Assembly: GCA_963752845.1 (NCBI GenBank)
Contig: CAVVZV010000003.1
Location: 320,708-384,707 of the forward strand
Source: an uncultured Actinomycetes bacterium
Lineage (GTDB): Bacteria > Actinomycetota > Thermoleophilia > Gaiellales > Gaiellaceae
Direction of reading: 5' to 3'
Length of the DNA: 64,000 nt
Shown here: piece by piece, positions 8,209 through 47,517 of the stretch
Layout: each line of letters starts with the position of its first letter
Position numbering within the stretch: position 1 is the stretch's first letter
Made by a program: the position numbers and the translations under genes
The notes under the pieces: generated by a model
The model's input: the letters and a program-made list of their open reading frames with translations, nothing else
Database searches by the model: none
What the model was told of the DNA's origin: nothing

Positions 8209-8542
8209 CGAGGGGCGGTCGATCAGCGCGAGCGCGGTTGCTTCCGTGCTGCTCGGGCTGGTGGCCGTCGCGACGATTCCGGCGGCGATCCTGTTCGCGG
8301 AGAGGTGGGAGCGGATCACGCTGCTCGAGTCGTCGGTGGCGATCGCACCGGCGTTCGTTCTCGGGCTCGCGGCCGTCTACCTCGGGCGGCGCGCGCGGCG
8401 GTCGATCGACCGGACCCTCGGCCGTGTCAGGGGCTACAAGCTGGCATTCGTCGGGCGGTTTCTCGGCTGGCTGGCGCTGTATATGGCGGTGACCGCGTCG
8501 ATCTCGGTCGCCACGTACTACGTGCTCCGGCAGATCGCTTAG
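8183..8542 (+). CDS. Hypothetical small membrane protein (start uncertain)
   Basis: 119-aa ORF with 3 predicted hydrophobic helices. It overlaps the previous gene by 26 nt if TTG 8183 is used. No family recognised. Confidence 0.4.
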   Translation: MAGLTRSNSEGRSISASAVASVLLGLVAVATIPAAILFAERWERITLLESSVAIAPAFVLGLAAVYLGRRARRSIDRTLGRVRGYKLAFVGRFLGWLALYMAVTASISVATYYVLRQIA

Positions 8543-8580
8543 TCGTTCGGGAAACACGTCTAGACTGAGCGCGCCGCCTG

Positions 8581-9330
8581 ATGTTCGAGATCGGCAACAG
8601 CCTCCGTGAGGCGCGCCTGCGCCAAGGCCTCGATTTTCCCGAGATCGAGCAGGCGACCAAGATCCGGCCCAAGTACCTCCGAGCGCTCGAGGACGAGCAG
8701 TTCGACATCCTCCCGGGCCAGACCTACGTCAAGGGCTTCCTGCGCTCGTACGCGGAGTACCTGGGTCTCGACGGCCAGCTCTACGTCGACGAGTACAACT
8801 CGCGCTACATCCACGTCGACGAGGAGACGCCGCTGCGAGCTCGGAGCACGTCGTCGCTCAGTCGCGCCGGACCGCGTTTCGAGACGAGCGTCCTGCTCGC
8901 CGCATTGGCTGCGATCGCAATCGTGACGCTGCTCGTCTTCGCCGCTTGGCGGTTCGGCAGCAACACGCCCGAGACTGCGATCCCCGATTACTCGACCCAG
9001 CCGCCGGCCGCGAGCCAGAACACGAAACCGAAGAAGCGCACTACGACGCCGCTTCGGAGAGCCAGGATGACGCTGACGGGCGCGCTCGGGGATAGCTGGG
9101 TCGAGGTGTACGCGAACTCGCCTTCCGGCCGGCTCCTCCACGAAGGAACGGTCGAGGCGGGCAAGAGCGTGCGGTTCGGCGTCGAGCGTGTCTACCGCCG
9201 GTACTTCGTCCGCATGGGCAGGCCGGGCAATCTGCGCATGACCGTGAACGGGCGCGTCCGCGAGCTTCCCAGAAGAGGGCCGGTCTACGTCACGGCCAGG
9301 CGAGTCACGGCTGGAACCCGCACGACCTAG
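8581..9330 (+). CDS. RodZ-like helix-turn-helix membrane protein (HTH plus DUF4115-like C-terminus)
   Basis: N-terminus MFEIGNSLREARLRQGLDFPEIEQATKIRPKYLRALEDEQFDILPGQTYVKGFLRSYAEYLGLD matches the RodZ/XRE signature. A single TM helix sits mid-protein. Confidence 0.7.
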   Translation: MFEIGNSLREARLRQGLDFPEIEQATKIRPKYLRALEDEQFDILPGQTYVKGFLRSYAEYLGLDGQLYVDEYNSRYIHVDEETPLRARSTSSLSRAGPRFETSVLLAALAAIAIVTLLVFAAWRFGSNTPETAIPDYSTQPPAASQNTKPKKRTTTPLRRARMTLTGALGDSWVEVYANSPSGRLLHEGTVEAGKSVRFGVERVYRRYFVRMGRPGNLRMTVNGRVRELPRRGPVYVTARRVTAGTRTT

Positions 9331-9376
9331 AGCGGCGGTCCTTGTCACGGGCACCGAGCTCGTCCGGGGCGGACGG

Positions 9377-10579
9377 GTGGACGAGAACGGGCCCTTCCTG
9401 GCGCGCGAGCTGTCCTCTCGCGGCGTAGAGCCGGAGCGGATCAGCGTGATCGGGGACCGGCCGGAGCGGCTCGAGGCGGCGCTCCGAGGCGCGCTGGAGC
9501 TCGATCTTGTCGTCATCTCCGGCGGCCTGGGGCCGACGCACGATGACCGTACGATCGAGCTGCTCGCCCGGGCTGCCAGCCGCGAGGTGCGCGTCGATCC
9601 GGCGCTCGAGAGCGAGATCGAAGGTGTTGTGCGCGGCCTCGCCGAGCGGTTCCGCCGGCCTTACGACGAGTTCGAAGCGGGCGTCCGCAAGCAGGCGACC
9701 CTGCCTGAAGGTGGGATCTCGCTCGGTCTCGCGGGCACGGCGCCGGGAGTCCTACTCCAGACCGGCTCGGCGCTGGCGATTGCGCTTCCCGGGCCGCCCG
9801 GTGAGCTGCAGCGAATCTGGCGCGCGGCGCTCGAGCGGCCCGAGCTCCAGGAGGTCTTCGCGCGGGCCAACAATCCGGCAAACCACATTCTCCGCTTCTT
9901 CGGGCTGCCCGAGTCCGCGATCGCCGGCGTCGTCGCGCAGGCCGGGGGAGAGGCCGAGGGGCTCGAGGTGACGATCTGCGCGCACGACCTCGAGGTGCAG
10001 GTCGACCTCGTGATCCCGCCGGGAAGCGAGGCGCAGGCCGATCGGGTGACGCAGGCGCTGCGCGCAGCACATCAGCGGGCGCTCTTCGCCGAGGACGAGC
10101 AGGCTGTGGAGGCAATAGTCCTCAACGCGGCGCGCGAGAAAGGGTTGACGATCAGCGCGGCTGAGTCGTGCACCGGTGGGCTTGTCTCGGCGCGGCTCAC
10201 GTCGATCCCCGGCTCGAGCGATGTGTTCGTGGGCGGCCTCGTCGCCTACGACGACCGGCTGAAGCTGGACGGCCTCAACGTCCCGGCGGAGATGCTCGAG
10301 CGGCACGGGGCGGTCTCGGCCGAGACGGCCGCAGCGATGGCGGCAGGTGCTCGGAGCACGCTCGGCGCGGATGTCGGGGTCTCCGTCACCGGGGTCGCGG
10401 GCCCCGGCGGCGGGACGCCGCAGAAGCCGGTCGGGCTGGTGTTCATTCACGCAGAGAGCCCCGAGTCCTCACACGGAGTCGAGCTGCGCCTGCCCGGCGA
10501 CCGCGGCGCGGTCCGGCGGCGAGCGGCCGCTTCCGCCTTGCATCTCCTTCGCAGACTGTTTGAGGCTCCAACGCAATGA
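9377..10579 (+). CDS. cinA: CinA (MoCF-type domain plus CinA/PncC-like C-terminal domain); true N-terminus probably upstream
   Basis: 400-aa ORF. The same frame upstream reads RAAVLVTGTELVRGGR (9329-9376), which is the conserved CinA N-terminus. No ATG/GTG/TTG occurs between the in-frame stop at 9245 and 9377. Confidence 0.8.
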   Translation: MDENGPFLARELSSRGVEPERISVIGDRPERLEAALRGALELDLVVISGGLGPTHDDRTIELLARAASREVRVDPALESEIEGVVRGLAERFRRPYDEFEAGVRKQATLPEGGISLGLAGTAPGVLLQTGSALAIALPGPPGELQRIWRAALERPELQEVFARANNPANHILRFFGLPESAIAGVVAQAGGEAEGLEVTICAHDLEVQVDLVIPPGSEAQADRVTQALRAAHQRALFAEDEQAVEAIVLNAAREKGLTISAAESCTGGLVSARLTSIPGSSDVFVGGLVAYDDRLKLDGLNVPAEMLERHGAVSAETAAAMAAGARSTLGADVGVSVTGVAGPGGGTPQKPVGLVFIHAESPESSHGVELRLPGDRGAVRRRAAASALHLLRRLFEAPTQ

Positions 10580-45537: not shown

Positions 45538-45963
45538 CTAGCTCGGTTCGTGAACGACGACCACCGGCCTCTTCGACCGGCGGACCACGTCGGCCGACAC
45601 GCTTCCGAGAAGCGAGCCGGCGATGCCACCGTGGCCCCGGGTCCCGACGACGACGAGGTCGGCGTCCCGGCTCTCGGCGATCATCGCGATCTCCTCGGCT
45701 GCGTCGCCCTCGAAGATCTCGAACTCGGCCTCGACTCCGGCCTCCTCGGCCATCGTCCTCGCGGCGTCCAGGGCTGCGCGGGCTCGGTCCAGGTGCTCGC
45801 TGAGCTTGTGCTTGTAGACGGAGCCACCCAGGAGGTCGGATACCTGCGCAGTGACGGCTACGACCAGCACCTTCGCGCCCAGCCGCTTGGCGAGGTCGAA
45901 GCCCTCCGAGAGGGCCGCGTCGGAGCCCTTGGACCCGTCCGTTCCGACGACGATCGTTGCCAT
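45538..45963 (-). CDS. Universal stress protein (UspA family)
   Basis: MATIVVGTDGS...DLVVVGTRGHGGIAGSLLGSVSADVVRRSKRPVVVV. SD GGAAGGAGGG. Confidence 0.85.
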   Translation of the reverse strand: MATIVVGTDGSKGSDAALSEGFDLAKRLGAKVLVVAVTAQVSDLLGGSVYKHKLSEHLDRARAALDAARTMAEEAGVEAEFEIFEGDAAEEIAMIAESRDADLVVVGTRGHGGIAGSLLGSVSADVVRRSKRPVVVVHEPS

Positions 45964-46065
45964 CGGTCCCTCCTTCCGTTCGCCTGGACCAGGACGTTCC
46001 GGGCCGAACCGCGCACACCCTACAGCGACGAAGACCCGGCCTGAATCGTGACGCCGGGCCTGTAG

Positions 46066-46143
46066 GTGGCGTTCACCTTCAAGCTCGAGCGGCTCGACGA
46101 GAGGCCCACGGCAGATGGCCGAGGTCCTCGGACGCGAGAATGA
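46066..46143 (+). pseudogene. Truncated 5' fragment of a small conserved ORF (duplicate of the 46913 N-terminus)
   Basis: VAFTFKLERLDERPTADG..., with stop at 46141. Nucleotides TTCACCTTCAAGCTCGAGCGGCTCGACGA match TTCGCCTTCAAGCTCGAGCGGCTGGACGG at 46919-46947, with about 4 substitutions in 29 nt. Confidence 0.4.
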
Positions 46144-46187
46144 CACTAGTGTTGGCGTGGCCCAGTTTTGGAGAGCGGAGGTAATTC

Positions 46188-46856: not shown

Positions 46857-46912
46857 GCCGCCTGCCGGGCGACATGCTCGGTGTTCCGTCCGGTCCCGGA
46901 CAGGAAGACTGG

Positions 46913-47320
46913 ATGACCTTCGCCTTCAAGCTCGAGCGGCTGGACGGAACGCCGGCCGAAGCCCCGTCGTTCCAGACCACCGTGCTCTCGTGGAGTCCCG
47001 GCGACACGATCCCGCTCGGTGTGAACAGGACGCTCCAGGCGGTTCGCGTCCGCGACAACCACGCCGACCAGGCGTCGGTACTCGTGGTCCGCGCCGGCGG
47101 CCTCGAGCACCGCTCGCCGGATGCGCTTCGGCATAGCTATGCCACGTTCGCAATCGCCGCGGGCGTGTCGCTGTTCGAGTTCGCCCGGTTCATGGGCACG
47201 TCGGTCGAGCAGATCGACAAGACCTATGGCCACCTACTGCCGGACGCGCTCGACCGGACGCGGCAAGCGCTCGACGTGTTCGCGCTAAGCCAAGAAAGAG
47301 ACGCCGAGCGCGCTCTCTAG
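46913..47320 (+). pseudogene. Chimeric ORF: a small hypothetical protein fused to the 3' remnant of a tyrosine recombinase (integrase) gene
   Basis: The N-terminal part is MTFAFKLERLDGTPAEAPSFQTTVLSWSPGDTIPLG...VLVV. From about 47100 it reads ALRHSYATFAIAAGVSLFEFARFMGTSVEQIDKTYGHLLP, the integrase C-terminal catalytic box (H-x-x-R ... Y). The N-terminal two-thirds of an integrase is absent. Confidence 0.65.
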
Positions 47321-47382
47321 CAGCAGTCGCAGCAGCTGCAGTCGCAGTCAGGGCCGCAACAGTCGCAATCACATGCGCGCAT
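47317..47382 (-). CDS. 21-codon polycysteine micro-ORF (MRACDCDCCGPDCDCSCCDCC)
   Basis: Hand translated. SD GGGAAGGAGG ends 6 nt before ATG 47382-47380. 10 Cys and 5 Asp in 21 residues. Stop TAG 47319-47317. Below the ORF-track size cut-off. Confidence 0.45.
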   Translation of the reverse strand: MRACDCDCCGPDCDCSCCDCC

Positions 47383-47442
47383 CCAGAGCCTCCTTCCCGC
47401 CGTTTGGGCCACCTGTGGGCCACGCCGCCGCGAGCATTTGAG

Positions 47443-47517
47443 TCGGGGCGCCCGGATTTGAACCGGGGACCTCTAGTCCCCCAGACTAGCGCGCTAACCA
47501 GGCTGCGCCACGCCCCG
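47443..47517 (-). tRNA. tRNA-Pro (anticodon GGG)
   Basis: Manual cloverleaf:
- Acceptor stem CGGGGCG/CGCCCCG.
- D stem GCGC/GCGC.
- Anticodon stem CTAGT/ACTAG, with loop CTGGGGG.
- T arm CCCGG-TTCAAAT-CCGGG.
- Discriminator A.
No CCA is encoded. Confidence 0.9.

Follow-up and report, generated by a model that had tools for sequence, protein, structure and literature searches.

What is encoded by a 21-codon open reading frame (ORF) with ten cysteine codons that lies between a proline tRNA gene and the remnant of an integrase gene? The question is raised by a 64,000-nt stretch of contig CAVVZV010000003.1 from an uncultured Gaiellaceae bacterium, hereafter the window, in which this micro-ORF occupies positions 47317..47382 of the minus strand. 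An earlier note on this DNA had offered two non-exclusive readings, namely that the product is a metallothionein-like, metal- or redox-binding micro-protein, and that the ORF is an orphaned polycysteine regulatory sequence. From the reading of the locus and of homologues in 25 other loci, we conclude that the micro-ORF is almost certainly a real, selected coding gene. It belongs to a family of peptides, rich in Cys and Asp(Glu) and 13-21 residues long, that no annotation has so far recorded. These peptides probably serve as mini-metallothioneins for a thiophilic metal(loid), and the window has an extra copy devoid of a regulator.

The micro-ORF opens with ATG at 47382-47380 and, after 21 codons, closes with TAG at 47319-47317 (ATG CGC GCA TGT GAT TGC GAC TGT TGC GGC CCT GAC TGC GAC TGC AGC TGC TGC GAC TGC TGC TAG). 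Its product, MRACDCDCCGPDCDCSCCDCC, contains 10 Cys and 5 Asp in 21 residues, with consecutive Cys pairs at residues 8-9, 17-18, and 20-21. A Shine-Dalgarno (SD) sequence, GGGAAGGAGG (47389..47398, minus), precedes the ORF, its AAGGAGG core at 47395-47389 being separated from the start codon by the 6-nt spacer ctctgg (47388-47383); comparable signals head real genes of the window, namely GAAGGAGG-N5-ATG for Usp and GGAGGAGG-N6-ATG for a DUF4234 gene. The minus-strand stop codon overlaps, within a common CTAG, the plus-strand TAG (47318-47320) that ends the ORF 46874-47320. The sequence is exactly as the earlier note had described it, and the gap of 60 nt that it gave between tRNA-Pro(GGG) and the ATG measures 59 nt. 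Its statement that no co-directional gene follows the micro-ORF also holds, since Usp (45538-46146), which comes next on the minus strand, is separated from it by two plus-strand genes. A scan for sigma-70 promoters and terminators around the micro-ORF detected none, by a consensus that may not fit this phylum. The RNA fold of 47270-47445 is no more stable than that of shuffled sequence (z = -0.24). In the minimum-free-energy fold of 47289-47398 (minus), the SD region pairs with a TCTCTTTCTT tract just past the stop, and the whole ORF is enclosed in one long hairpin.

High cysteine density combined with start signals sets the micro-ORF apart; the earlier note had called the density of its Cys/Asp alternation very unusual. 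In a background set of 951 kb, comprising the window and the fetched loci, we counted 571 ORFs of 10-45 codons with an SD and an ATG, and solely the window micro-ORF and 21 relatives reach at least 30% Cys (0 of the 549 others). Out-of-frame reading of GC-rich genes often yields 6-7 Cys per 20 residues; Cys-dense stretches in locus L021, one of which reaches 10, were rejected as candidates, because they have neither SD nor ATG and are read out of frame within an 841-aa gene. At the protein level, no entry of a 5.8-billion-cluster index shares three 5-residue words with the 51-codon open frame, and phmmer, run exhaustively with the 31-aa GTG-extended ORF, returned no match among 1.84 billion representatives, which implies that gene callers have always missed the peptide. 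No earlier description of the peptide family was found in the literature, the coverage of which was incomplete and is thus no proof of novelty.

Relatives were sought at the DNA level, as the earlier note had advised, with a codon-degenerate pattern for the core CDCDCCGPDCDC that leaves the SD, the ATG, the last five codons, and the stop outside. This search uncovered 10 metagenome contigs with the arrangement SD-ATG-(2-3 codons)-CDCDCCGPDCDC-TDCDC-stop, so that the SD, the in-frame ATG, the C-terminal TDCDC, and the immediate stop, on none of which the pattern depends, are kept in 10 of 10. The encoded peptides are MRACDCDCCGPDCDCTDCDC and variants that start with MRKA, MLKA, MRSA, or MSA. 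The flanks of these contigs represent at least three non-homologous contexts (A, B, and C), between which homology extends over about 55-113 nt covering the SD and the ORF; that of the window copy to other family members is likewise confined to these two elements (67-76 nt).

Context A revealed a regulatory partner. Here, the ORF is divergent from, and 43 nt apart from, a gene for an ArsR/SmtB metalloregulator (NF033788, 95 bits at a cutoff of 55; Pfam HTH_5). Retrieval anchored on this regulator, by way of seven homologues 61-81% identical to the query, yielded 15 loci from seven lineages, and in all 15 a divergent, SD-led, Cys-rich ORF of 13-21 codons is present that the source annotations had left uncalled. 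Pairing with this regulator is thus the usual chromosomal setting of the family. These regulator-paired peptides include MRACDCDCCGPDCDCTDCDCC, MSCCDCDCGDGCC, MKRSCCDSGCCGGCCDCC, and MAGCDCDCGPECEGCDCGC (with or without one extra C), as well as (M)FCCDSDCCEGDDCC, (M)SCCDCDCDCGSGCC, and (M)SCCCEGCDCDCC. An in-frame ATG lies within the SD (ATGAAAGGAGG) in L112-L114, on the minus strand and about 35-50 nt ahead of the ArsR start, and the product could therefore comprise 14-15 residues from GTG or 20 residues starting with MKGG(P/A)V. Across the family the peptides span 13-21 residues with 37-48% Cys, and both CxC and CC motifs occur in 14 of 14 distinct peptides; Asp and Gly-Pro, at non-Cys positions, are conserved too.

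We then compared substitutions within the ORF. The window copy and that of L101, a pair not chosen by peptide, are of equal length and differ by 5 synonymous and 3 non-synonymous changes (pS 0.52, pN 0.056), the window peptide being that of L101 with T16S and D17C, and their flanks are only 24-26% identical, which is the random level. L093 and L097 differ by 6 synonymous and 0 non-synonymous changes. A start codon and an SD (GGAG/GAGG, 4-8 nt ahead) are retained in 26 of 26 loci, and length differences among homologues amount to whole codons throughout, as between GGCTGCTAG and GGCTGCTGCTAG in L107 and L108, respectively. The earlier note had named out-of-frame length variation and the loss of ATG and SD as signs of a simple repeat, and homologues display neither. 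As judged from these comparisons, the micro-peptide is under purifying selection. Within the ORFs of L107-L111 the sole length change is one TGC codon. In the same loci, an 11-nt tandem repeat, GTTCTCAGCCG / GTTCTCTGCTA, begins right behind the micro-ORF stop, in the 40-90 nt that follow it (e.g., about 2300-2385 in L109), and varies in copy number among near-identical strains.

The intergenic regions between the ArsR gene and the small ORF (sORF) measure 40-66 nt. An inverted repeat, AT(C/T)GA-N6-TC(A/G)AT, overlaps the regulator start codon at a fixed position in 17 of 17 such regions, and a second copy stands just upstream of the ORF SD in L112-L114. Elsewhere in 962 kb the repeat occurs at only two sites, both in L020, where two adjacent AT(C/T)GA-N6-TCGAT copies (8333-8366) lie directly upstream of a paralogous arsR followed by arsM (genes at about 8390-9570). 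This ArsR paralogue is 48% identical and has the same Cys pattern (CC...CQC), and ArsM is an arsenite methyltransferase (NF008823, 283 bits at a cutoff of 263). The repeat at L020 is a candidate operator of this ArsR subfamily in Gaiellaceae.

The paired regulators themselves carry invariant cysteines C11, C12, C53, and C55, that is, an N-terminal CC pair and a CxC in helix alpha-3, and have no His/Asp/Glu cluster in alpha-5. The closest solved structure is 6j0e, 'Arsenic responsive repressor ArsR' (E 6e-15), in which the CC pair is aligned, with weaker matches to SmtB, CzrA, NmtR, and CadC. This makes As(III)/Sb(III) the likeliest inducer, with Cd, Pb, Zn, and Cu(I) as alternatives. Taken together, the conserved peptide, the selection on it, and the divergent ArsR/SmtB gene with its operator-like repeat strengthen the metallothionein-like reading of the earlier note, and metal binding itself we infer. 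In the mechanism that we consider probable, the ArsR/SmtB repressor would, without inducer, occupy the inverted repeat and keep the micro-gene off; a thiophilic metal(loid) would bind the thiolate site of the repressor and derepress the micro-gene, and the peptide would then sequester the ion through 8-10 thiolates in CxC/CC motifs. The outcome would be a mini-metallothionein, or mimic of a phytochelatin, that is produced by the ribosome.

This proposed logic has known counterparts. In the smtA-smtB layout, a metallothionein gene and a divergent gene for an ArsR/SmtB repressor share an operator-promoter between them (PMC7387436). The family resembles this cyanobacterial module (BmtA family) in that its small Cys-rich gene is divergent from an ArsR/SmtB sensor gene, with an inverted repeat in a short intergenic region; the window copy does not have this layout, no ArsR homologue or operator motif being present in the 64 kb. 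Metallothioneins are characterised by low molecular weight, very high Cys content, and Cys-x-Cys and Cys-Cys motifs (PMC12193353), traits that recur in the size, composition, and motifs of the family peptides. On the other hand, SmtA has 56 residues and Pseudomonas metallothioneins about 70 (PMC12193353), while the micro-peptides of 13-21 residues show no sequence similarity to SmtA, contain no His, and leave no room for the SmtA fold. The sensors differ as well, because SmtB is a Zn sensor, whereas the regulator paired with the micro-gene, with its N-terminal CC, its alpha-3 CxC, and no alpha-5 His/Asp/Glu ligands, is closest to As(III)-responsive ArsR. Bacterial metallothionein genes occur in both chromosomal and plasmid copies, the latter including plasmid bmtA (PMC12193353), and the micro-gene similarly has an extra copy on mobile DNA, the island-borne one of the window.

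Among actinobacteria, MymT is the named mycobacterial metallothionein (PMC11672702, PMC7387436). Like this cytoplasmic, Cu(I)-binding protein of Mycobacterium tuberculosis, whose gene was long unannotated, the micro-peptide is a small Cys-rich actinobacterial product that would sequester metal; unlike it in sequence, it shares no similarity with MymT. The latter comprises about 53 residues and is under copper-sensing repressors, not a divergent ArsR/SmtB partner. In size and Cys density the micro-peptides compare with the smallest known metallothioneins, such as the fungal Cu-metallothioneins of 25 residues. Phytochelatins, (gamma-Glu-Cys)n-Gly, are made by an enzyme and bind Cd and As(III). 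The micro-peptide resembles phytochelatins in being very short and in alternating Cys with an acidic residue, and departs from them in being the product of a natural ribosomal gene with its own sensor; the synthetic phytochelatins (Glu-Cys)n-Gly are laboratory constructs.

How the window came to hold a copy is best understood from its surroundings. On the minus strand, a conserved housekeeping block (pyrH-frr-uppS-cdsA-dxr-rseP-ispG-proS) is followed by an XRE-type helix-turn-helix (HTH) gene and tRNA-Pro, and the micro-ORF stands at the end of this block. The tRNA-Pro(GGG) gene (47442..47517, minus) was identified by ARAGORN and by Rfam (RF00005, 62.7 bits), where it was the sole match, and serves as an integration site. 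Nine contigs encode an identical HTH protein in DNA about 92% identical to the window, and in those that reach the tRNA, L081 and L085 among them, homology to the window stops exactly at the tRNA-Pro 3' end, beyond which L081 and L085 have different inserts, that of L081 with another integrase end. Strains about 92% identical carry different inserts that start exactly at the tRNA 3' end, which marks the tRNA-Pro(GGG) behind proS as a hotspot of integration in Gaiellaceae; the micro-ORF belongs to strain-specific inserted DNA, not to the core genome. Indeed, 80 ProS-anchored loci, from Gaiellales and others, have no Cys micro-ORF beside tRNA-Pro, which places the ORF outside the conserved proS-tRNA-Pro neighbourhood; these loci are mostly labelled Gaiellaceae, Gaiellales, or Thermoleophilia, and their best ProS identity to the window is 78%. 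The link to tRNA-Pro pointed out in the earlier note is thus real, though indirect.

The plus-strand ORF that meets the micro-ORF tail to tail bears the imprint of the inserted element. It is chimeric, with 148 aa encoded at 46874-47320, of which residues 1-70 (MLGVPSGPGQEDWMTFAFKLERLDGTPAEAPSF...) are unlike integrases and residues 71-148 (47084..47320, plus) are the C-terminal remnant of a tyrosine integrase. In tblastn, residues 71-136 were 86% identical to the integrase of L090, 79% to that of L010, 74% to that of L016, and 70% to that of L081, while Pfam gave no match to the 148-aa ORF at E <= 0.01. The L090 homologue is full-length, with 368 aa, and has the same ...AL* terminus as the window ORF, which identifies TAG 47318-47320 as the native stop of the integrase. 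Between tRNA-Pro and the micro-ORF lies a direct-repeat pair of 8 nt, GTGGCCCA-cag-GTGGCCCA, followed by AAACG (47405..47423, minus). Analogous pairs follow tRNA-Pro in L010, L020, L023, L031, L007, L004, and L081, frequently with the AAACG ending, and each tRNA-Pro insert (L081 3790-3900, L085 1800-1900, window 47405-47441) has its own 7-9-nt pair spaced by ~11 nt, about one helical turn. The pair beside the micro-ORF is putatively the arm-type recombinase site of the integrated element. The minus-strand order of tRNA-Pro, repeat pair, SD, micro-ORF, and converging integrase stop accordingly puts the micro-ORF just within one border of a degraded integrative element that entered at the tRNA-Pro(GGG) 3' end, flanked on one side by the repeat pair of this element and on the other by the native stop codon of the truncated integrase.

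Related elements at tRNA-Pro that we examined are all devoid of the micro-ORF. Exact look-ups of a PRC-barrel protein and of the 148-aa chimeric ORF returned nothing and thus yielded no further copy of this island. For the far end of the island, the window contains no second copy of the tRNA 3' end, and no relative has the genes left of the integrase remnant. Scanning viral contigs with the peptide pattern gave 0 matches, and the integrase-anchored viral scan retrieved one locus, L090, without the micro-ORF. In the window, 20 nt just past tRNA-Pro (47429-47448) are 75% identical to the tRNA T-arm and 3' end (47449-47468); this stretch may be an old scar of attachment-site (att) duplication, or chance.

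The other regulator-less copies are also found close to tRNA genes, every one of them within 60-260 nt. In context B, tRNA-Leu(CAG) lies 56 nt downstream of the ORF, whereas tRNA-Thr(CGT) and tRNA-Met(CAT) lie 192 and 255 nt upstream of it in L094 and L097, respectively; in context C, a terminator with an 11-bp stem comes after the ORF. About 200 nt are common to L094 (234-441) and L097 (266-450), encompassing a promoter-like TAGGAT/TGTACGAT, the SD, the ORF, and an intrinsic terminator, beside different tRNAs, and L094 also has a repeat pair with 11-nt spacing. L093 (about 1620-1670) and L094 (37-109) are 99% identical downstream and diverge inside tRNA-Thr. Of this tRNA, L093 retains no more than 47 nt of the 3' end, which adjoin the micro-ORF cassette as an att-like partial copy and point to another insertion at that tRNA. 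The proximity to tRNA genes, the repeat pair of L094, the cassette shared by L094 and L097, and the partial tRNA of L093 together suggest that regulator-less copies travel with elements integrating at tRNA genes.

Several points weigh against the mini-metallothionein interpretation. Peptides as short as 13-21 residues might not be stable in vivo. The family peptides match nothing in Pfam, NCBIfam, or PDB even at E = 10, the BmtA/SmtA family included, so that 'metallothionein' denotes functional analogy and not homology. The inducer is ambiguous, as the Cys pattern of the regulator suits As(III)-type and CadC-type sensors alike; CadC, also of the ArsR family, senses Pb/Cd through a site that contains four Cys (PMC11672702). 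Metal-related neighbours are absent from contexts B and C and from the window, and a Gaiellaceae label is attached to one regulator partner only, the other soil-metagenome contigs being unlabelled; some family members at least come from Gaiellaceae. Moreover, a co-directional gene comes after the ORF in L103-L111; in L103-L106 this gene is preceded by an SD of its own, and its start lies about 70 nt past the ORF stop. A cis-regulatory role is conceivable in the L103-L111 lineages. Finally, the window copy sits in a decayed element without operator, ArsR gene, or promoter, the promoter-like TAGGAT/TGTACGAT of other contexts being absent too, and may consequently be silent.

This last point grounds a first alternative, according to which the family is functional and the window copy a silent relic, cargo at the edge of the decayed element that was severed from promoter and operator. 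The integrase cut to 78 residues and fused to unrelated sequence, the restriction of homology to the SD and ORF with loss of the flanking control sites, and a C-terminus that reads SCCDCC in place of the consensus TDCDC(C) would all fit such a fate. However, the copy keeps a perfect AAGGAGG-N6-ATG, an intact frame, and the length of its L101 counterpart, and its two amino-acid changes, T16S and D17C, left the Cys content the same or higher over a span in which five synonymous changes accrued. In addition, our scan found no terminator-like site between tRNA-Pro and the window ORF, unlike in many relatives with a strong hairpin right after the tRNA, and read-through is thus possible. We therefore regard the relic as rather unlikely. 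Since the window copy has neither an operator nor a promoter that can be recognised, its expression would need this read-through from tRNA-Pro, which is the most plausible route; whether the copy is expressed at all we judge to be evenly balanced.

A second alternative accepts the family and assigns it a role other than sequestration, namely as a metallochaperone or co-factor to ArsR or an exporter, as a thiol/redox buffer, or as a precursor of the ribosomally synthesised and post-translationally modified peptide (RiPP) kind, modified by enzymes encoded elsewhere (e.g., with Cys-Asp thioether crosslinks). Function is here deduced from composition and neighbourhood alone, and an EamA-family transporter gene converges on the regulator gene in L091, L101, L102, L112, and L114, which speaks for this alternative. 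Cys-Asp alternation is, furthermore, the substrate pattern of some radical-SAM thioether peptides. Nonetheless, a RiPP precursor is unlikely, because the 1-4 residues ahead of the first Cys leave no room for a leader peptide and because none of the contexts has a conserved gene for a maturase, a radical-SAM enzyme, or a peptidase beside the ORF. More generally, pairing with a metal(loid) sensor and a Cys content of 38-48% most simply fit direct binding. Hence, we hold such other roles to be improbable and favour sequestration.

The second proposal of the earlier note, a cysteine-responsive leader ORF in which ribosomes stalling at Cys codons control a downstream gene, fared poorly. Polycysteine sORFs of mycobacteria are leaderless first cistrons of cysteine-metabolism operons, in which stalling unmasks the next SD from an RNA duplex, and this class needs just two consecutive Cys codons (10.1101/834739, Canestrari et al.). 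The micro-ORF, with its three Cys-Cys pairs and 10 Cys codons, is likewise an unannotated, Cys-dense actinobacterial sequence missed by gene callers, and in L103-L111 a co-directional gene comes after it. In contrast to the mycobacterial sORFs, however, every member has an SD 4-8 nt upstream and thus a 5' untranslated region, and the ORF usually stands by itself, in that a gene of the opposite strand converges on it or a terminator follows. Such a converging gene comes next in the window, in context C, and in the six loci L101, L102, and L112-L115, where it is the end of a VWA-domain or uncharacterised gene; in context B a tRNA follows the ORF. Neither are cysteine or sulfur metabolism genes found nearby, nor does the window, with a fold no better than shuffled, have a next gene whose SD could be masked. 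Pairing with a metal sensor sets the family further apart, as does conservation of Asp and Gly-Pro, which goes beyond what stalling alone requires. The attenuator is thereby largely refuted and very improbable.

Weakest of all, a chance ORF born from a (GCA/GTC)n-like simple repeat, where Ala- or Gln-rich DNA is read in antisense or out of frame, might be suggested by the imperfect 9- and 15-nt periods that Tandem Repeats Finder reports at 47319-47347, by one 21-nt repeat pair, by the out-of-frame Cys-dense stretches of L021, and by the QQSQQLQSQ that the plus-strand integrase frame reads past its stop, and is refuted by the recurrence of the peptide with SD and start codon in 25 other loci with unrelated flanks, by mostly synonymous substitutions and whole-codon length changes, as opposed to the freely varying 11-nt repeat after the stop in L107-L111, and by the ...AL* end of the L090 integrase, which shows that the repeat is not a degraded integrase tail.

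The logic of a metal sensor coupled to a thiolate peptide is known; what is new is the peptide family, its size, its probable link to arsenic, and its mobile copies. With about even confidence, we propose more broadly that Gaiellales encode a new class of 13-21-residue thiolate peptides, which would be the smallest metallothioneins known, each with a dedicated As(III)/soft-metal ArsR and operator in a minimal sense-and-sequester module, that regulator-less copies spread on tRNA-integrating elements, and that no gene caller or protein database in present use reveals the class. If so, a new family of extremely small members would join the short list of bacterial metallothioneins (SmtA/BmtA, Pseudomonas metallothioneins, and MymT). 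The family also illustrates the cost of gene-caller length cut-offs, being conserved and apparently regulated and yet having no called homologue in collections of 5.8 billion clusters and 1.84 billion representatives. The peptides are short enough for chemical synthesis, which makes metal(loid) stoichiometry and affinity directly testable, and the sensor, its operator, and the peptide would together offer a compact part for the biosensing and bioremediation of arsenic or heavy metals. To judge by the copies that adjoin tRNA genes and integrase remnants, metal-binding capacity may be able to move between strains as cargo of ~70-210 bp, in Gaiellales that are abundant and poorly studied, a dominant soil lineage with almost unknown metal and arsenic biology.

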